A stretch of 64,000 nt of DNA from an uncultured Clostridia bacterium. Lineage in GTDB: Bacteria > Bacillota > Clostridia > TANB77 > CAG-508. The notes beneath the pieces were generated by a model. It saw only the letters and a program-made list of their open reading frames with translations. It ran no database searches and was not told the origin of the DNA. The stretch lies in contig CAKPIG010000005.1 of assembly GCA_934162255.1 (NCBI GenBank), forward strand, positions 18,480-82,479, in the 5' to 3' direction. The translations under genes and the position numbers were made by a program. Below are positions 1,183-41,020 of the stretch, piece after piece; position 1 is the first letter of the stretch, and each line of letters begins with the position of its first letter.

Positions 1183-1210
1183 TTTGTCTTGTTGTTCTCC
1201 TTTATTTTTT

Positions 1211-1743
1211 GCTAGATGGTGAAATCTAAGTAAATTTTACGGTTTAGGTCTAGTTGAATTTCTCTATCCTTTACTATACATTACTGCATAGCTGTTTCCA
1301 TTTAAAAGAACATCTATATATTTCATTAGACACTAGATCGCCACTTAAATCCGTACCTTAATCCTTAGATTTCTATGTTCCTCTAGGAACAAACACTCTA
1401 GAAGTTTTCCTTAACATACTATATTTATTGTTAGTCTTTTTTGCAAGTGCAATTTCATAACTGATATAATGCTAATCCCAGTACATTCACTCAAGACAGG
1501 CTACAATATGTATTTTGTGTCTTGGCACTCAACATAGGTTTTACTTAAACAAGGTTGTTTTAAGCCTCCACGAGAAGAGGGAGTTTTGCATATGCCATTA
1601 TACAGTTCCCCAGTCTCTTTACTCCCTGCTCACACACAAAACTGGCATTTCGCGCACAAACAAGAAACTTCATCGGTATGCCCTTTAGTGGATTTTTAGC
1701 CCCACCCTCACAATAACTAGTATGACTAGAATAGTGCACCATC
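1211..1743 (-). ncRNA. Large (about 530 nt) structured non-coding RNA, possibly OLE-class (class unverified)
   Basis: The 590-nt gap has no credible ORF and is visibly richer in G+C than its flanks. The 5' GAUGGUG (1743..1737) pairs with CACCAUC (1221..1215). A perfect 10-bp long-range helix joins 1364..1373 and 1221..1230. Further helices join 1578..1584 with 1621..1627 and form a hairpin at 1717..1729. A consensus-like promoter sits immediately upstream. Confidence 0.65.
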
Positions 1744-1749
1744 TTTTAT

Positions 1750-1778
1750 ATTATACTATTTTTCCTAATATTTTACAA
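1750..1778 (-). promoter_or_regulatory. Sigma-A-type promoter for the structured RNA
   Basis: On the minus strand: TTGTAA (1778..1773), a 17-nt spacer, then TATAAT (1755..1750). This puts G1743 at a typical +1 distance. The -35 overlaps the stop codon of the tmk-like gene. Confidence 0.55.
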
Positions 1779-5443: not shown

Positions 5444-5465
5444 AAAGACCTCAGAAGAGGTCTTT
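5444..5465. terminator. Bidirectional terminator hairpin
   Basis: AAAGACCTC-agaa-GAGGTCTTT lies between the convergent aminopeptidase and surface-protein genes. It is flanked by A/T runs. Confidence 0.75.
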
Positions 5466-7992
5466 ATTTATTCGTAAATCCTGTTGCTTTACATCCGTTA
5501 AACATTCCTGTTGTTGTAGCTTTAGTTGACCAATTTCCTGCTCTTCTATTTATTGTCGCTAAATTTGAACAGTTTTGAAACATATAATTCATGTTTGTTA
5601 CACTTTTTGTATTCCAACAACTACTATCAAAATCATTATAACAATTTAAACTTGTTAAGCTAGAACATCCACTAAACATTTCTTGCATATTTGTTACTTT
5701 ATTTGTTTTGAATGCTTTTATATTTGTAGGTGTTGTTAGTTTTGAGCATCCTCTAAACATTGCCTGCATCCAAATTGCATTACTTGTATTAAAATTACTC
5801 AAGTTAATTGTTGTAAGTCTTGAACATCCATCAAACATCATTTCAAAATATTGAACATTTGATGTGCTTGAAAATCTTGTAATAAAGTTTAAGCTTGTTA
5901 AACTTGAACAATTTTGGAACATTCCTCTCATTTGTGTTACTGAATTTGTATTTAATGTTGCTGAATCATATGCAATATTATTTAACTTTCCGCATCCTGC
6001 AAAAACATATGTCATATACTTAAGTTTACTGCTTGTTATAGCTGGAATTTGAGCAGTTGTTAATGATGAACAGCCATAGTACATATATCCTATACTTTCA
6101 ACATTTTTTGTATCTATTGATGTTCTTATTGTCGTACTTACATTTGTTAAGTTTGTGCAATTATAAAACCACATTCCCATACTATCCGGTATTATTGTAT
6201 TTATTACTTGTGTACTTTTTACGCTTAAAGCATATCCTAACCATGGTATATTATTTGCTGTTTGTGAATCTGCTGCTGGATGGTATTTCTGCCCTGTTAT
6301 ATTCCATGTTCCTGCTTGTACAGTTTTTCCTGCAATTGTTCCTGGAACATTGTTAAATGCAAGTGTCCCATCTGTATATAATGTTACATATATTGTATTT
6401 GGTGTTGTACATGTAATAACATCTGATGGTTCGCTATTTCCTGCTACATCATATACCATTGCATATATGTTATACGTTGTTGATGGTTTTAAATATAAGA
6501 TTCCATTTTTATTTTTAGAACTTACCCCAGCAATTGAACCATTCATATTAGTATATGTTTCATCATCACTATTATATGAACTTGCAGATACTTCTTTATA
6601 ACGCCATTCTATTCTTTGAATTCCACTTAATTCGTCTCGTGCAGTTATATTAAATGATATATTTGCTTCTGTTTCGGCTGCACTTGCAGATATTTGAGCT
6701 GTTGGCAAATCTTTGTCGATATTATTTACATTATATGTTGCATCACTTCCAACATTTCCACTCTTATCTACTAATCTTGCATATACCAATCCATTTGAAC
6801 TACGTTCCATTGTACTTATATTTTCATAGTTTATTCCATCTAAACTCATTTGTACCATATAACCACTATTTAAAATTTCTTGTTTTACTGTTGCCGTTAC
6901 TGTTACATCTTTATTTGTCCATGTAGATGGTGAACCTGAAAGTGTTATGTTTGTTTTATCTGGCACTTTTAGTGTTCTAGCTGAAACTGCCTCACTTATA
7001 TTTCCTGCAACATCTATTGCAAATATATAATATGTTGTTTCTTGTTTTAGTCTTGTTACAACATCTTTTGCTTCTTTTTGTCCTGTTACTCCTTTATTTA
7101 AAAATTCATTTGCATTTGGCATTGTTTGGCTGTCTTTAAGTATATAACTATAGATTCCACTTCCATCATCTGTTGCCTTAAATTCTATACTATCTGATTT
7201 TGTATTTAGTATTGTTACTATTGGAGCTTTTTCATCTTTCCACACAGCATATAATTCTTTGTTTTCATTTTTAGTATAATATCTACTATCTTTTTCGTTC
7301 TTATATAAAGGTTCTGTATCTGTTGCGTTTTCTGCCCAACCTTTAAATCTATACCCTTCTTTGTACATATAATCATCTATGTTAAATAATAATTCAAGTG
7401 ATTTATTGCTTTTTTTCTTGTATGTTGGTAATGCTTTCCCTGTCTTCAATGTTCCACCATTTGGATTATATGTTATATTGTATTCAAAAACAGTTTGATT
7501 TTCATCATCATTTCCTCCTGGTGTTGTTCCAGAATTTCCACCTGGATTTGTTCCTGTTGTATTATTTGCATCTATTTCGATTTCTACTAAATAACTATTA
7601 TTTGTATTAGAGAATGTAACTTTTACAATTGTATATCTAGCACTTTGAGCTTTTACTACCGTTTCTAATGTTTCTTTGTCACTGTCTGTTGCTTCTTCTA
7701 TTTTGATGTCATTTCCATTTGCATATTTTTGTAGATATACATTAAGAGATTCTTTATTCAATCCTATAGTTATTTCATCATTATATTTTACGCCTTTGTT
7801 CATTTGCATTTCAGTGTATGCTGACTTTATTACTTTGATTTCTTCATCTTTTGTAGTTGTCTCACTTGTTTTTTCTACATTATCAAAAAGCCCTCCATTT
7901 TTCGCTATAGCTATTGCTACTCCAGCTATTATTAGTATTACTATTATTGTCACTACTAATGCAATTAAAGTAATTCCTTTTTCTTTTTTCAT
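5464..7992 (-). CDS. Large surface protein with a pilin-like N-terminal anchor, a Listeria-Bacteroides-type repeat, Ig-like modules and C-terminal DUF285/BspA-like leucine-rich repeats
   Basis: 842 aa. The N-terminus MKKEKG-ITLIALVVTIIVILII resembles a prepilin leader but has Ala, not Glu, at +5. YNITYNPNGG...GYRFKGW is a Flg_new-type repeat. The C-terminus has repeated MF.GCSSLTSL / NTSNV..M..MF units. AGGAGGAAACC RBS. It starts only 23 nt downstream of nagZ. Confidence 0.8.
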   Translation of the reverse strand: MKKEKGITLIALVVTIIVILIIAGVAIAIAKNGGLFDNVEKTSETTTKDEEIKVIKSAYTEMQMNKGVKYNDEITIGLNKESLNVYLQKYANGNDIKIEEATDSDKETLETVVKAQSARYTIVKVTFSNTNNSYLVEIEIDANNTTGTNPGGNSGTTPGGNDDENQTVFEYNITYNPNGGTLKTGKALPTYKKKSNKSLELLFNIDDYMYKEGYRFKGWAENATDTEPLYKNEKDSRYYTKNENKELYAVWKDEKAPIVTILNTKSDSIEFKATDDGSGIYSYILKDSQTMPNANEFLNKGVTGQKEAKDVVTRLKQETTYYIFAIDVAGNISEAVSARTLKVPDKTNITLSGSPSTWTNKDVTVTATVKQEILNSGYMVQMSLDGINYENISTMERSSNGLVYARLVDKSGNVGSDATYNVNNIDKDLPTAQISASAAETEANISFNITARDELSGIQRIEWRYKEVSASSYNSDDETYTNMNGSIAGVSSKNKNGILYLKPSTTYNIYAMVYDVAGNSEPSDVITCTTPNTIYVTLYTDGTLAFNNVPGTIAGKTVQAGTWNITGQKYHPAADSQTANNIPWLGYALSVKSTQVINTIIPDSMGMWFYNCTNLTNVSTTIRTSIDTKNVESIGYMYYGCSSLTTAQIPAITSSKLKYMTYVFAGCGKLNNIAYDSATLNTNSVTQMRGMFQNCSSLTSLNFITRFSSTSNVQYFEMMFDGCSRLTTINLSNFNTSNAIWMQAMFRGCSKLTTPTNIKAFKTNKVTNMQEMFSGCSSLTSLNCYNDFDSSCWNTKSVTNMNYMFQNCSNLATINRRAGNWSTKATTTGMFNGCKATGFTNK

Positions 7993-9314: not shown

Positions 9315-9391
<77 letters not shown>

Positions 9392-15270: not shown

Positions 15271-15972
15271 TTATACAGCTTCACTTTCTGTTGTTTCTTC
15301 TTTTTTGTCTGTTCCTTCTTCATTTAATAGTTCTAGACTGCATATTGAAACTTCATATGCAACTTTCATTTCAGATGTTCCATCTTCATATTTCTTTTCA
15401 TATTGTCTTGATTGAACTCTTCCTATTATTTTTACTTGAGCTCCAACTTCTAAGTTTTGGCAAAATCTTGCATTTCTTCCCCATGCTATTGTTGGAATAT
15501 AGTCTGATTTATTGTACGCTCTGTTTACTGCTAATAATAAATCTGCTATTTCTCTTCCAAATGGTGTTTGTCTGTAAATTGGTTTTTTACAAACAAATCC
15601 AATAAGTACAACTTCATTTGTTGTTTCATCTTTTTTTGCAATTTCGCTTTCTTCTTGCTCTTCTGATTCTTTAACTTCTTCAACATCTTTAGCGAATACT
15701 GTTAGAATTAACTTGTTTCTTTCATTTTCATAACTATTGTAAGATCTGAATTGACCTTTTATTAATAGTTTTTTACCTTCTTCTAACATTTCATCAGTTA
15801 TTATTCTTTCTGATATAGTTATTGGTATTATGTCTGCGTTTCCACTTAAACGTGGTATTGATAAATTAAAAATGTAAAATTTTTCTCCATAAATTTCATG
15901 GCTAAATTTTTTTTCGCCTGTAACTTTTCCTACTAATGTTAAGTAGTTGTTTTCTAAATAATTTGTATCCAA
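15271..15972 (-). CDS. Single-stranded DNA-binding protein-like, with two tandem OB folds
   Basis: 233 aa with a TTG start after GGAGGA. Both halves match the SSB pattern: LTLVGKV...LLIKGQFRSY and VVLIGFV...IAWGRNA...VKIIGRVQSRQYE. An acidic linker joins them. The acidic tail lacks a terminal PF. Confidence 0.7.
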   Translation of the reverse strand: MDTNYLENNYLTLVGKVTGEKKFSHEIYGEKFYIFNLSIPRLSGNADIIPITISERIITDEMLEEGKKLLIKGQFRSYNSYENERNKLILTVFAKDVEEVKESEEQEESEIAKKDETTNEVVLIGFVCKKPIYRQTPFGREIADLLLAVNRAYNKSDYIPTIAWGRNARFCQNLEVGAQVKIIGRVQSRQYEKKYEDGTSEMKVAYEVSICSLELLNEEGTDKKEETTESEAV

Positions 15973-16131
15973 TTTTATTTCCTCCCTATCTTTTTTTATT
16001 TATCAATTGTAAATTACCTTCTTGCTTTTCTCTTTTTAAAATTTTCTACATTTCTTATTATACAACATTTTTTTGGTTTTGTCTACATAAAAAGTTATTT
16101 TTTTCTAATTTTTCCTCATTTTATTGCCTTT

Positions 16132-19289: not shown

Positions 19290-19297
19290 TTGAATAT

Positions 19298-19336
19298 TGT
19301 AATATTTTTGTAATATAAATGTAATGTAATTGTAAT
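19298..19336 (+). promoter_or_regulatory. Phased TGTAAT direct-repeat element, copy A
   Basis: Four TGTAAT hexamers start at 19298, 19309, 19320 and 19331, an exact 11-bp phasing. The element begins a few nt after the XRE stop codon and lies upstream of a TATAAT at 19359..19364 and the HExxH ORF. Confidence 0.6.
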
Positions 19337-19409
19337 ACACTTTTACGACAAAATATTGTATAATTAATTTGACGAATTTTTATACAAAAAGACAAATTTG
19401 GAGGATAAA

Positions 19410-20492
19410 ATGAGCATTGAGTCTGACCTACGCAAAGATGGAATTAGAGTAATCGACATACTTGATACAGTATCTGTAAATAAAATAGCTCATAGTATAG
19501 CCAAAAAACTTTGTGATAATTTTCCTGAACTTTGTTTTAGTGAAAATGTTTTATTCACAAAATTGTCTCAATTAAATATGTATAGAGCTAGTATGCCTGA
19601 AGGAATGGCTGAGGCTAACTATTTTTATAAAAATACATCTATATATTTTAATGAAAAAATCGCATTTGAGGACTTAGAAGAATTCGCTATTCACGAGTGT
19701 ATTCATTATATTCAAGAAGTTAAAGATAAAAAGAATAACCTTGTTCGAATGGGTCTATGCGTTTTTGATAATTTTAAAATTTTAGGTATGGGATTAAATG
19801 AAGCTGCTGTGCAGTATATGACTTCCAAAATCATAGGTATTGAAAGAGACTATGTAAAATATTTTGGAGTTTCTTTCAGAACAGCAAGTCCATCATATTA
19901 TCCTATAGAATGTAATTTAATTGAACAAATGGCTTATATAACAGGTGAATCTGTTTTATTTGATAGTACTTTTACAAGTAATGATAAATTTAAGAATAAG
20001 TTTATTGAGTTAACTTCTGAAAAAACATATGATGAGGTTGAATATTGTATCGACCAAATTCTTGAACTTGAAGAAACAATTATAAAATTAGGTAATAAGT
20101 TTGCTTCTTTTGATGAAAGAAATAAAAAGGTTGATAAAATAGTTGCAAAATCTGATAGCTGTAAGGCTAAGATTGCCGAATATTATGTTAAAGCTCAAAA
20201 TTTAATAATCAAAAATTATTTTGATAGAGCTTTTAAAAAGATTACTAATTTAGAAGAACTTGATGAATATAGAAAAAGCTTAGAACATTATAAGGAGTTA
20301 ATTGGTCGTACTGATGACTATACCTTCTTTGATGATTACTATACAGAAAAGATGACCGAGTTAGAACATAAATCTAATATACTTGAAAATGGCGGCATCG
20401 AAACTGCTCTTGAGGTCAAGAAAGTTAATAAATTTGTTTCTTGGTTTAGAGCATTTAAGAACTTCGTAACAGGAGAAAAAATACATAATTAA
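19410..20492 (+). CDS. HExxH metallopeptidase-motif protein (ImmA/IrrE-like N-terminal region, long helical C-terminus)
   Basis: 360 aa with ATG at 19410 after GGAGGA. It has FAIHECIHYIQE (HExxH), with GLNEAAVQY about 30 residues later as a possible third ligand. Confidence 0.55.
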   Translation: MSIESDLRKDGIRVIDILDTVSVNKIAHSIAKKLCDNFPELCFSENVLFTKLSQLNMYRASMPEGMAEANYFYKNTSIYFNEKIAFEDLEEFAIHECIHYIQEVKDKKNNLVRMGLCVFDNFKILGMGLNEAAVQYMTSKIIGIERDYVKYFGVSFRTASPSYYPIECNLIEQMAYITGESVLFDSTFTSNDKFKNKFIELTSEKTYDEVEYCIDQILELEETIIKLGNKFASFDERNKKVDKIVAKSDSCKAKIAEYYVKAQNLIIKNYFDRAFKKITNLEELDEYRKSLEHYKELIGRTDDYTFFDDYYTEKMTELEHKSNILENGGIETALEVKKVNKFVSWFRAFKNFVTGEKIHN

Positions 20493-20575
20493 CAAATGAT
20501 GAATTTTAGTTTACAAATGATTCTAATTTGCTAATGAAATTTTTATCTACTAATGATTATTATACAAAAGATATT

Positions 20576-20602
20576 AAAACCTCAGTTTTTAGCTGAGGTT
20601 TT
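20576..20602. terminator. Bidirectional terminator
   Basis: AAAACCTCAG-tttttag-CTGAGGTTTT lies between the convergent HExxH ORF and the 648-aa ORF. Confidence 0.8.
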
Positions 20603-20604
20603 AT

Positions 20605-22551
20605 TTATTGTATTCCAAATGAACCTGTATATGCATTTATTGCTTCTGTTGTACTTCCTAAATATCCAATAATCGTTTGTCTTGAATATGAACTCCCAAT
20701 TAATCCTGCATGATAATTTAATCCTCCTGAATCTGGTTCTCTAAACATTATAGATCTATATATTCTTCTAACATGTTCTGTGTTATTGTAGTTGTGTAAA
20801 TTATATTCCTCTCCATTTAATAAACCTGCTTGTACCACTGCCATTGCCATGTATTTTTGATTTCCTGATACACTTGAGCTATATCCACAAGATGAAAAAT
20901 ACCCTTGTCCACTAGGCCAATAGTTAAAATTATATCCATCATATAAAATCTTTGTCCAATATTCTTCACCTGAATCATCTGCCATTCTGTCTAATATATT
21001 ATAATATGCTCTTACAACAAATGCTTGGTATTTATTATATACTCTAATTGTTTGTTTTGCATATCCAATATTTCCTGCTGAATCTACTCCTTTTCCATAT
21101 ATATAATATATTGTAGAATTAGCTGCAGCTGTAGCTGATGATGGACTATCATTTGCAGAAAGTCTTATTACTGTTTCTTGAGTACTTCCTCCAGAAACAT
21201 TGCTCCAGTTTCCAGAAGCACTTACAGATGTTACATTATCATAATTACCAACATTTTGTGTGCTTGCTCTAAATTGAAGGCTTGTTATATATTCATTTGC
21301 ATTTATTCTCATAGTTATTGCTTTTCCAGAAAATGCTTTATATGTGCTTGTACTTGTCCCTGATGCCATTCCATTAGTCAAGTTATAACTATCAGTACCA
21401 ACTCTCATGTTATACCACATTGTTTCTCCTAATGATATGGTTGGAGCAATATTGTCTAAATAAAATGCATTTGTTCTAGCAGTTGTAGTATTTCCCACAT
21501 TGTCTTTGGCTATAACCCACAAATACCAGTTGTTTCCACTATCGACTGACCCTGTTATTGTCCCTCCATTTGAAAATGTTCTGCTAAATGAACTTTCTGC
21601 TGGTGTTGACGTGCTTTGAGTCCATGCATATTTTAATGAACTTGTATTAACTCCTGATCCACTATCAGATACTGTTACTGTTGTGCTATGGCTTTTAGCC
21701 CATGTTGTACTTCCATTTGTTCCAAAAGATACCGTTGGAGCTGTTATATCCATTTTTACTTGAGTTGTTTCAACTTCACTTACTTGTCCAAGATTATCTA
21801 CTGCTCTAAACCAAATTGTCGTATTATAATTGTTATACCATCCACCTTTTATGCTTGCTGAGTTTCCGTTTCTTTCTAGACTATTTCCCCAATTTGTTGA
21901 CCAATTTACATTATCATAACTAAACTCTATTCTGTCTATTTGTGTTCTATCATCTTCTGTTGATGATGTTGCTGTTATAGTCAACATTGAATTTGTCCAG
22001 TTTCCATTACTTGGGTTGTCTATTACTGGCTTACTTGGTGGTGGTGGACCTATTTCAAAATTTATGTATGAATTCAATTCATTGCTATTTGCAACAGTTC
22101 CATCTTTATATTTGAAAGTTATATATATTGTAACTTCCTCTTTTGATTTTATTAATCCTCCCTTTTGTATTCCTCCTGTATCAATAACTACTTCTATATC
22201 AGTATTATCATAAAATGACTCATCATAGCTTAAACCTATAAAAGCATAGTTTTGACTTGTATTGTTATATAATTTTACTTTATATGTTATACTTGAGCTT
22301 CCATTTGTCTTTGATAACACTACTGTATTACTTAACATTCTTTTGACATATGTATTTATTTTTGATTCTACTGTGTCTGCATCTACATTTGAATAATATT
22401 CTGCATCACTTATAAATACTCCTTCTTGTAAAGGACTTTCTGCTTGTACTTCTATTGTTCCTGTGATATTTCCTATACTTGCAAATGCAGTTCCTAATAT
22501 CATTACGATAAACATGAGAAAAAAAGGAATTATACTTCTTATTTTTTTCAT
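20605..22551 (-). CDS. Secreted surface protein with Ig-like modules and a C-terminal DUF4214-like domain
   Basis: 648 aa. The leader MKKIRSIIPFFLMFIVMILGTAFASIGNITG shares a motif with the two small paralogs at 39858..40878. Modules are repeated (DITAPTVSF...SDSGSGV...AKDNVGN). The C-terminus reads YYNILDRMADDSGEEYW ... IMFREPDSGGLNYH, which is DUF4214-like. Confidence 0.75.
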   Translation of the reverse strand: MKKIRSIIPFFLMFIVMILGTAFASIGNITGTIEVQAESPLQEGVFISDAEYYSNVDADTVESKINTYVKRMLSNTVVLSKTNGSSSITYKVKLYNNTSQNYAFIGLSYDESFYDNTDIEVVIDTGGIQKGGLIKSKEEVTIYITFKYKDGTVANSNELNSYINFEIGPPPPSKPVIDNPSNGNWTNSMLTITATSSTEDDRTQIDRIEFSYDNVNWSTNWGNSLERNGNSASIKGGWYNNYNTTIWFRAVDNLGQVSEVETTQVKMDITAPTVSFGTNGSTTWAKSHSTTVTVSDSGSGVNTSSLKYAWTQSTSTPAESSFSRTFSNGGTITGSVDSGNNWYLWVIAKDNVGNTTTARTNAFYLDNIAPTISLGETMWYNMRVGTDSYNLTNGMASGTSTSTYKAFSGKAITMRINANEYITSLQFRASTQNVGNYDNVTSVSASGNWSNVSGGSTQETVIRLSANDSPSSATAAANSTIYYIYGKGVDSAGNIGYAKQTIRVYNKYQAFVVRAYYNILDRMADDSGEEYWTKILYDGYNFNYWPSGQGYFSSCGYSSSVSGNQKYMAMAVVQAGLLNGEEYNLHNYNNTEHVRRIYRSIMFREPDSGGLNYHAGLIGSSYSRQTIIGYLGSTTEAINAYTGSFGIQ

Positions 22552-22669
22552 ATTTTTCTTTCCTTTTTATATTATTTCAAGTATATCATTATGTCTATTT
22601 TTTAACAACATTAAAAATTCCGATATATATATATACGCCCTCAAGGGTTTCCGGGATTTTTATGTGATT

Positions 22670-22713
22670 ATTAATTTTTTATTACATTTTTGTTACAAAA
22701 ATATTACAATATT
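22670..22713 (-). promoter_or_regulatory. Phased TGTAAT direct-repeat element, copy B
   Basis: On the minus strand it reads AATATTGTAATATTTTTGTAACAAAAATGTAAT and matches copy A at 31 of 33 positions. Hexamers at 22708..22703, 22697..22692 and 22686..22681 are 11 bp apart, with a degenerate fourth at 22675..22670. It lies about 130 nt upstream of the 648-aa ORF. Confidence 0.6.
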
Positions 22714-40940: not shown

Positions 40941-40968
40941 ATTATAGCATTTGAGATGTAAAAGTCAA
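40941..40968 (-). promoter_or_regulatory. Sigma-A promoter of the paralog operon
   Basis: On the minus strand: TTGACT (40968..40963), a 16-nt spacer, then TGC-TATAAT (extended -10, TATAAT at 40946..40941). Confidence 0.6.
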
Positions 40969-40983
40969 CAGATTTCGACTTAA

Positions 40984-41020
40984 TGTAATATTTGTAACAC
41001 AAATGTAATATTATTGTAAT
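40984..41020 (+). promoter_or_regulatory. Phased TGTAAT direct-repeat element, copy C
   Basis: Hexamers are TGTAAT at 40984, TGTAAC at 40993, TGTAAT at 41004 and TGTAAT at 41015 (spacings 9, 11, 11). The core TGTAATATTTGTAACACAAATGTAAT matches copies A and B. It starts 16 nt upstream of the -35 of the paralog promoter and is inverted relative to transcription. Confidence 0.55.

Follow-up and report, generated by a model that had tools for sequence, protein, structure and literature searches.

Response regulators of the OmpR/PhoB family have as their hallmark head-to-tail binding to direct repeats placed 11 bp, or one helical turn, apart (PMC4415409). WalR (YycF/VicR) is part of the WalRK system, said to be present in all Firmicutes (PMC9210968), and its consensus is TGTWAH-N5-TGTWAH (PMC9210968, PMC4168254). 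Footprinting and mutagenesis in Streptococcus mutans refined the VicR site to TGTWAHA-N4-TGTWAHA, showing that the adenine after the half-site matters (PMC4168254). The consensus sequences of PhoB and WalR closely resemble each other, and sites upstream of the −35 element are associated with activation (PMC4168254). Here we describe arrays of TGTAAY hexamers, phased at 11 bp, in a 64,000-nt stretch of DNA from an uncultured Clostridia bacterium (contig CAKPIG010000005.1; hereafter the window) and in related genomes. The arrays are real, conserved regulatory elements of a well-known kind, probably sites for an OmpR/PhoB-family response regulator, most likely the WalR orthologue.

Compared with WalR/VicR boxes, the arrays have an identical half-site, including the A at position 7, the same 5-nt (4-nt) spacer and the same direct orientation. 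They share a location upstream of or at the −35 element, and some of their targets are likewise cell-wall, cell-division and surface-protein genes. They differ in having four units (sometimes three or five) instead of two and in adopting two or three fixed promoter geometries, one of them reversed. Their targets also include the unusual veg and nrdD and a gene for a protein with an HExxH motif. The PhoB Pho box of Escherichia coli (PMC4415409) and the PhoP core of Bacillus subtilis are alike in another respect, being 6–7-bp direct repeats of 11-bp periodicity bound by head-to-tail OmpR-family dimers. XRE/Cro-CI operators and ImmR–ImmA pairs provide a third comparison, as a small XRE gene lies directly upstream of the HExxH gene. 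A fourth is the SinR–tapA-sipW-tasA system of B. subtilis, in which an XRE-family regulator governs secreted fibre subunits that need a dedicated signal peptidase.

Results

Phased TGTAAY arrays in the window

The window has a G+C content of 27% and carries clostridial marks, including spoIIE-like, mreBCD, CotF and pcrA genes and an OLE RNA. Three arrays, copies A, B and C, are found in it (Table 1). A sequence-only reading of the window had described all three as a cooperative transcription factor site. Its hexamer positions and spacings for copies A and C were reproduced and lie far beyond chance. The 33-nt stretch at 19293–19325 recurs as copy B on the minus strand (22713–22681) with two mismatches, or 31 of 33 identical positions, again as described. 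The gene positions also agree, with copy A between the XRE and HExxH genes, copy B 130 nt before the gene for a 648-aa surface protein and copy C abutting the promoter of two small secreted paralogues. That the sites are phased direct repeats, conserved and coupled to promoters bears out the cooperative-site description.

Allowing at most two mismatches, the three-hexamer pattern matches the window four times, against 0.11 expected, and none of 100 shuffles reaches four; no array arises in 50 local shuffles. TGTWAH-N5-TGTWAH has eight matches (1.7 expected), seven of which fall within copies A–C. Single TGTAAT hexamers are not enriched (101 versus 96 expected), and therefore the signal lies in phasing and clustering. 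Relaxed scans of the window gave no array beyond copies A–C. Coding sequence makes up 92% of the window, yet all three arrays fall between genes (P about 6e-4). Copies A and C are placed before the predicted start sites, and an Rfam scan found no RNA element at the arrays.

TGTAAT-N5-TGTAAT is an exact instance of the WalR consensus. An adenine at position 7, right after the hexamer, is present in 10 of the 11 window units, including three of the four in-phase units of copy A; an additional, off-phase TGTAAT at 19325 is a product of the spacer GTAAT. Every window hexamer has A at position 4. Read toward the minus-strand genes that it faces, copy C has RTTACA units, the promoter-nearest of which is spaced 9 bp, not 11 bp, from the next. 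A recent duplication giving rise to copies A and B was considered in view of their 31/33 identity and judged unnecessary, as TGTAATATTTTTGTAAYATAAATGTAAT recurs at unrelated genes elsewhere (loci L161, L166 and L194). The shared string looks like a preferred consensus.

Conservation at the HExxH promoter

Copy A begins 4 nt past the stop codon of the XRE gene and lies 74 nt before the HExxH start codon. A sigma-70 scan calls no promoter here because of the weak −35 element. Orthologous HExxH loci were gathered from metagenome and genome contigs, and four hexamers precede the gene in all seven lineages, down to 47% protein identity. The distance from the last hexamer to TATAAT is 21–22 nt in each of them. 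In the alignment of the seven promoters the hexamers, the next A and the −10 element are almost all invariant, the exception being a TTTAAT unit in L003. Spacers vary between the promoters, and at the most distant locus all else has diverged. Conservation in related genomes, which the sequence-only reading had proposed as a check, thus extends to both the array and its geometry.

The XRE gene does not follow the same pattern. It is beside the HExxH gene in four of the seven lineages (the window, L001–L005 and L134), and the XRE protein is well conserved (85–87% identity). In one lineage it is separated, with another gene between XRE and the array (L182), and in two it was not found: no XRE gene is present within the 8-kb locus L199, and an unrelated open reading frame takes its place in L194. 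The hexamers are direct repeats, and the spacers give only weak, AT-rich partial palindromes, 74–91% complementary, with no dyad.

The HExxH protein has more than 2,500 homologues in metagenomes. It gave no sequence match in Pfam, NCBIfam or the PDB, and no Peptidase_M78/DUF955 match. Its AlphaFold2 model is poor, with a predicted local distance difference test (pLDDT) score of 63, and the Foldseek matches of the model are meaningless.

A second motif was noticed 3′ of the HExxH gene, where 5–10 copies of approximately TAC(A/T)A(A/T)(A/T)GA(T/A) are spaced 17–21 nt apart (window 20486–20577; L001 7083–7255; L003 7082–7282), as in TACAAATGAT, TACTAATGA and TACAAAAGAT. Copy number varies between relatives, and the series ends just before a bidirectional terminator (20575–20603). 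An extra copy, TTATACAAAAAGACAAA, lies in the conserved HExxH 5′ leader (window 19380–19396). Window-wide the motif is not enriched (30 versus 24 expected), and four copies fall within 80 nt here. It could be a local site of the XRE protein or of an RNA-binding factor. Separately, an inverted repeat of about 40 nt, TTGAG-N-TTTTTCC-N-TTTTAGTC-N-AAA-N-CTCAAAT, flanks the HExxH gene in L001 (5803–5845 and 7322–7358) and is possibly a small intergenic repeat family.

Distribution and unit consensus

One genome per bacterial and archaeal species was scanned for four TGTAAY hexamers at 11-bp phase, a pattern that fixed A at hexamer position 4. At least 120 matches resulted, and the array counts below refer to the matches listed. 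At least 55 array loci are in low-GC genomes (G+C at most 34%), mostly metagenome-assembled genomes labelled uncultured Clostridia or Clostridium; others are in Ruminiclostridium, Oscillospiraceae, Ruminococcus and Tissierella. Across 56 arrays of low-GC Clostridia the unit consensus is w-w-t-TGTAAY-A-t-w, usually in exactly four units with variable, AT-rich spacers. The A after the hexamer occurs in 71–85% of units, though it was not required by the search. Arrays are frequent, with three in the 64-kb window and, once the seed arrays are set aside, about six in 420 kb of related loci. A literature search found no paper joining TGTAAT direct repeats with Clostridium, nor PhoP with TTAACA.

The sequence-only reading had proposed a small regulon of three sites, which does not hold, as the same arrays stand at dozens of unrelated promoters in related Clostridia (mreB, ftsA, veg, nrdD and others). 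The array regulon is much larger than the three window sites. That reading had also held that occurrence at many unrelated AT-rich sites with no gene association would speak against a regulatory element. The sites are indeed many, but the gene association is conserved and the geometry fixed.

Some scan matches are unrelated: those in Bacteroidota, Nitrosopumilus, Runella and others include perfect tandem repeats of 11 bp as well as repeated elements. A three-hexamer scan of viral contigs gave scattered matches among those listed; this pattern is too unspecific for large collections.

Two side observations concern the occurrence of arrays and of similar repeats. In L234 a four-unit array (2628–2666) lies upstream of the orthologue of window gene 15271–15972, at about 76% nucleotide identity. 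It is absent from the same place in the window (16060–16130), where the flank GTCTACATAAAAAGTTA is conserved, and therefore arrays have been gained or lost between species. In genomes that are Prolixibacteraceae where the record title is shown, four direct CTGTAAC units with the same units inverted close behind them (…GGTTACAG…) make up an element found in multiple copies, on many contigs per genome (L138, L155, L157, L160, L171, L184, L190, L196, L212 and L221). This element resembles the end of a mobile element or a family of palindromic repeats and has no relation to the clostridial arrays.

Fixed distances to the promoter

Arrays fall into a few positional classes. Downstream of the last unit, a −10-like hexamer is found after 21–22 nt in 15 of 67 arrays, a class to which copy A belongs. 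On the opposite strand, the −10-like hexamer lies 37 nt after the array in 15 of the 67 and 42 nt after it in eight. Taking strong promoters only, the opposite-strand gap between array and −35 element is 14–15 nt in 17 arrays, and copy C belongs here. In the forward direction a gap of 70 nt occurs in five arrays, mostly at veg loci.

Copy C lies between the terminator of the CotF gene and the promoter of the small secreted paralogues, with gaps of 15 nt to the −35 and 37 nt to the −10 element. Its three distal units are 24 nt from the −35 element, compared to 25 nt in canonical four-unit arrays, and the promoter-nearest unit is 2 bp off phase.

Copy B starts at the stop codon of an upstream gltD-like oxidoreductase gene. 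The best candidate promoter for the 648-aa gene, TTGTTA-17-TATACT, is 72 nt downstream of the array, a gap that resembles the 70-nt class at veg loci. The 648-aa gene and copy B are both absent from the relatives L001 and L003, and therefore represent an insertion in the lineage of the window. Between copy B and the candidate promoter there is a long imperfect hairpin on the minus strand (22615–22660; AAAAATCCCGG…CGGAATTTTT). It may be the terminator of the oxidoreductase gene, in which case copy B would be inside the 3′ untranslated region of that gene.

Genes served by the arrays

Among the matches listed, the genes behind clostridial arrays encode HExxH orthologues, MreB (L128, L203 and L162), Veg (six loci), a family of 290–330 aa without a name (five loci), NrdD and FtsA. 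Further products are a Hydrolase_2/PG_binding_1 cell-wall hydrolase, a thioester-domain (TED) surface protein, lipoproteins and large pilin-like proteins. MreB, FtsA, Hydrolase_2, TED, the pilin-like proteins and the lipoproteins fit a cell-wall, division or envelope theme; veg, nrdD and HExxH do not obviously do so. Many array-served genes encode secreted or surface proteins, which sustains the link to secreted proteins made in the sequence-only reading. No phosphate-acquisition gene was found in the window or behind the clostridial arrays listed.

Other phyla give a different picture. There the four-hexamer pattern is found ahead of genes for a pstC-like permease, a Na/Pi cotransporter and a PHO4 transporter, and these arrays are presumably Pho boxes. 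In Bacteroidales the pattern is 75 nt upstream of a Response_reg and Trans_reg_C gene, which fits autoregulation.

The pilin-like family (445–860 aa) was observed in the window (5464–7992, minus strand) and in L144, L172, L178, L213, L224, L225 and L228. Its prepilin-like N-terminus reads K-G-I-T-L-(I/V)-A-L-V-(I/V)-T-I, and an A takes the place of the E5 usual in type IV pilins. Genes of the relatives have a four-unit array followed by a conserved promoter (…TATTGAAAA…), whereas the window member is without an array and also has PARCEL repeats.

Small secreted proteins and their leader

The leader ILG[VT]A[YF]A[AS]I[SG]NI[TS], noted from the sequence, is present in all three secreted proteins encoded downstream of copies B and C. 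The proteins are alike in this leader only, as profile comparison aligns residues 1–39 (E 1.7e-5). A terminator (39851–39821) follows the second paralogue, and therefore the M23 peptidase gene is a separate transcription unit.

The AlphaFold2 model for the small paralogues is confident (pLDDT 92) and shows an N-terminal helix and then an Ig-like β-sandwich. Its fold matches are weak, and the PDB list has donor-strand fibres, including the Sulfolobus thread 7pnb (TM score 0.46), the TasA fibre 8aur (rank 29, TM score 0.39), CFA/I and FimG. Neither Pfam nor NCBIfam gives a Peptidase_M73/TasA match, and only sub-threshold DUF1573 and choice-of-anchor D matches appear. The label 'TasA-like' applied to the paralogues is therefore not supported by family profiles and receives weak support from the fold.

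The array does not generally accompany this family. A protein-guided scan of metagenome contigs with the 164-aa protein gave one distant locus, with no array. Of five distinct loci of 164-aa homologues, only L247/L248 has a partial array, with two or three ATTACA units 14 nt before the −35 element; none was found at L246, L249, L250/L251 or L252. Since most of these loci are without an array, the link to the 164-aa family is not general. One array, at L193, does serve a gene for a homologue of these small proteins.

At other loci, a gene for a 375–378-aa Peptidase_S26/S24 protein, signal peptidase I-like, comes after the homologue of the 164-aa protein (L247/L248 3620–5884; L250 4072–6334), and in L247/L248 a DUF5305 gene comes after it as well. 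The arrangement suggests that the unusual leader ILGVAYAAISNI has a signal peptidase of its own, the S26/S24 protein. In the window, no S26/S24 peptidase was noticed.

Other window features

Apart from the features in Table 1, the OLE RNA of the window is full-length (1200–1758, minus strand; Rfam RF01071, 326 bits), and a tRNA is present at 9318–9391 (minus strand).

Table 1. Arrays, promoters and adjoining genes in the 64,000-nt window
Feature	Position	Strand	Description
Copy A	19298..19336	+	TGTAAT at 19298, 19309, 19320 and 19331; exact 11-bp steps; reads toward the HExxH gene
Copy B	22681..22713	-	TGTAAT-N5-TGTAAC-N5-TGTAAT; reads toward the 648-aa gene
Copy C	40984..41020	+	TGTAAT 40984, TGTAAC 40993, TGTAAT 41004, TGTAAT 41015; spacings 9, 11 and 11
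XRE/HTH_26 gene, 78 aa	19053..19289	+	Pfam HTH_26, E 9e-7; upstream of copy A
−10 element (TATAAT) of the HExxH promoter	19359..19364	+	22 nt after the last TGTAAT; −35 position is TACACT, a poor match
HExxH gene, 360 aa	19410..20492	+	Served by copy A
648-aa surface protein gene	20605..22551	-	C-terminal DUF4214; served by copy B
Promoter of the two small secreted paralogues	40941..40968	-	TTGACT-16-TATAAT, 11/12 matches; TG before the −10 element
Two small secreted paralogues, 164 and 165 aa	39858..40878	-	Served by copy C

Discussion

Motif, 11-bp phasing, conservation, fixed promoter geometries and a wide distribution together characterize the TGTAAY arrays. From these features we infer the family of the binding protein, its identity and the sign of regulation. 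With moderate confidence we place the binder in the OmpR/PhoB family, and the narrower identification with the WalR orthologue is tentative. The occurrence of the pattern at phosphate transporters and at a regulator gene in other phyla is an independent association with the OmpR/PhoB family. The clostridial gene set, with division, shape, wall hydrolase and surface-protein genes such as mreB and ftsA, suits WalR better than PhoP.

Several points weigh against WalR. Described WalR sites usually have two hexamers, and four with an 11-bp periodicity is the arrangement of B. subtilis PhoP. The constant A at position 4 of the window hexamers is narrower than the published W, and some of the genes served, namely veg, nrdD and the HExxH gene, fall outside the classic targets of WalR. 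Copy B is without canonical geometry, lying between a stop codon and a hairpin. A tblastn search with a B. subtilis WalR query sequence found no response-regulator gene in the window or near about 60 clostridial arrays, and response regulators appeared only at Bacteroidota-type and other non-clostridial loci. The binder is therefore assigned by analogy.

For a WalR-type regulator, each TGTAAYA unit would be one half-site. Monomers would bind head-to-tail, one helical turn apart on the same DNA face, such that four units could accommodate two tandem dimers. The regulator would act mainly as an activator. The promoter at copy A has a good −10 and a poor −35 element, with the array ending at about −35, and therefore activation is predicted: the bound regulator would recruit RNA polymerase to the HExxH gene in a classical activator-dependent layout. 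The promoter at copy C is near-consensus, with the reversed array ending at about −50, where upstream (class I-type) activation or modulation may take place, probably activation. Copy B would be a distal site of uncertain effect, some 100 nt before the probable start site of the 648-aa gene, in an arrangement that recurs at veg genes. The sign is predicted from position relative to the promoter only (PMC4168254).

The arrays might instead be bound by another, uncharacterised abundant DNA-binding protein of the lineage, or act mainly as phased bent DNA, which we regard as rather unlikely. Their density, the housekeeping genes served (for example, veg and nrdD), the AT-rich spacers, often with alternating T-rich and A-rich runs, and the coming and going of arrays between close relatives such as L234 and the window would all suit such a protein or curvature, as would the lack of a regulator gene near the arrays. 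However, the hexamer is nearly invariant, G at position 2 included, and the spacers vary, which points to base-specific recognition and not curvature. Exact agreement with the consensus of a known regulator, position 7 included, would also have to be a coincidence.

A Pho-box function, in which a PhoP/PhoB-type regulator switches surface-protein genes under phosphate limitation, is improbable. The arrays do have the PhoP core arrangement noted above, RTTACA matches TT(A/T/C)ACA at five of six positions, and such boxes replace or abut a weak −35 element, as copy A does. TGTAAT is one base off the E. coli core CTGTCAT (PMC4415409), and in other phyla the pattern stands before phosphate-transport genes. 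Yet this single-base difference in the half-site sets the arrays apart, the listed clostridial arrays serve no phosphate-related gene, and the A at position 7 agrees with the VicR refinement.

The sequence-only reading took the XRE protein (78 aa) encoded next to copy A for the most parsimonious binder, with the arrays as its operators controlling the HExxH and secreted-protein genes as a small private regulon. We now consider this very doubtful. The proximity of the XRE gene to copy A, its pairing with the HExxH gene in several lineages and the good conservation of its protein are all in favor, and some XRE-family proteins, such as SinR, use tandem sites. However, XRE/Cro-CI operators differ from the arrays, which are without dyad symmetry and lie downstream of the XRE gene, not at its promoter. 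Nor does the array travel with the gene, as it keeps its 21–22-nt geometry in L182, L199 and L194, the three of seven lineages where XRE is separated or missing. Among the arrays listed, XRE homologues occur at HExxH loci only, and more than 50 arrays at other genes have none nearby. The motif is instead the consensus of a different regulator family, matching WalR/VicR. The SinR site is GTTCTYT, unlike TGTAAT. The ImmR–ImmA comparison is limited to gene order, since the HExxH protein does not belong to Peptidase_M78/DUF955 by profile. The resemblance to the SinR–tasA system lies in the S26/S24 peptidase gene that adjoins homologues of the small secreted proteins; these proteins are different in having no TasA/camelysin profile match, with a weak likeness to the TasA fibre fold.

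There is also a slim chance that a small lineage-specific helix-turn-helix (HTH) protein, for example, the 78-aa XRE protein, polymerises head-to-tail on one helix face with no response regulator involved. Were this true, the surface proteome and division genes of uncultured gut Clostridia would have a new global regulator, with a binding mode unusual for the XRE family. Finally, a chance origin from AT-rich, low-complexity intergenic DNA, which the base composition and the unenriched single hexamer could evoke, is ruled out for practical purposes by the shuffles and by the conservation of hexamers at fixed −10 distances in orthologous promoters.

Assignment to WalR or a related regulator does not change the current understanding of how such regulators work. 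If it is right, four-unit TGTAAYA arrays offer a sharp signature that is simple to scan for, and metagenome-assembled genomes of uncultured gut Clostridia could be searched with it for the regulon, envelope and division genes included, of an essential-type two-component system. Fast-evolving surface proteins, pilin-like proteins and small secreted proteins would belong to this regulon. Arrays gained and lost among close relatives point to a route by which surface-protein expression may be rewired.

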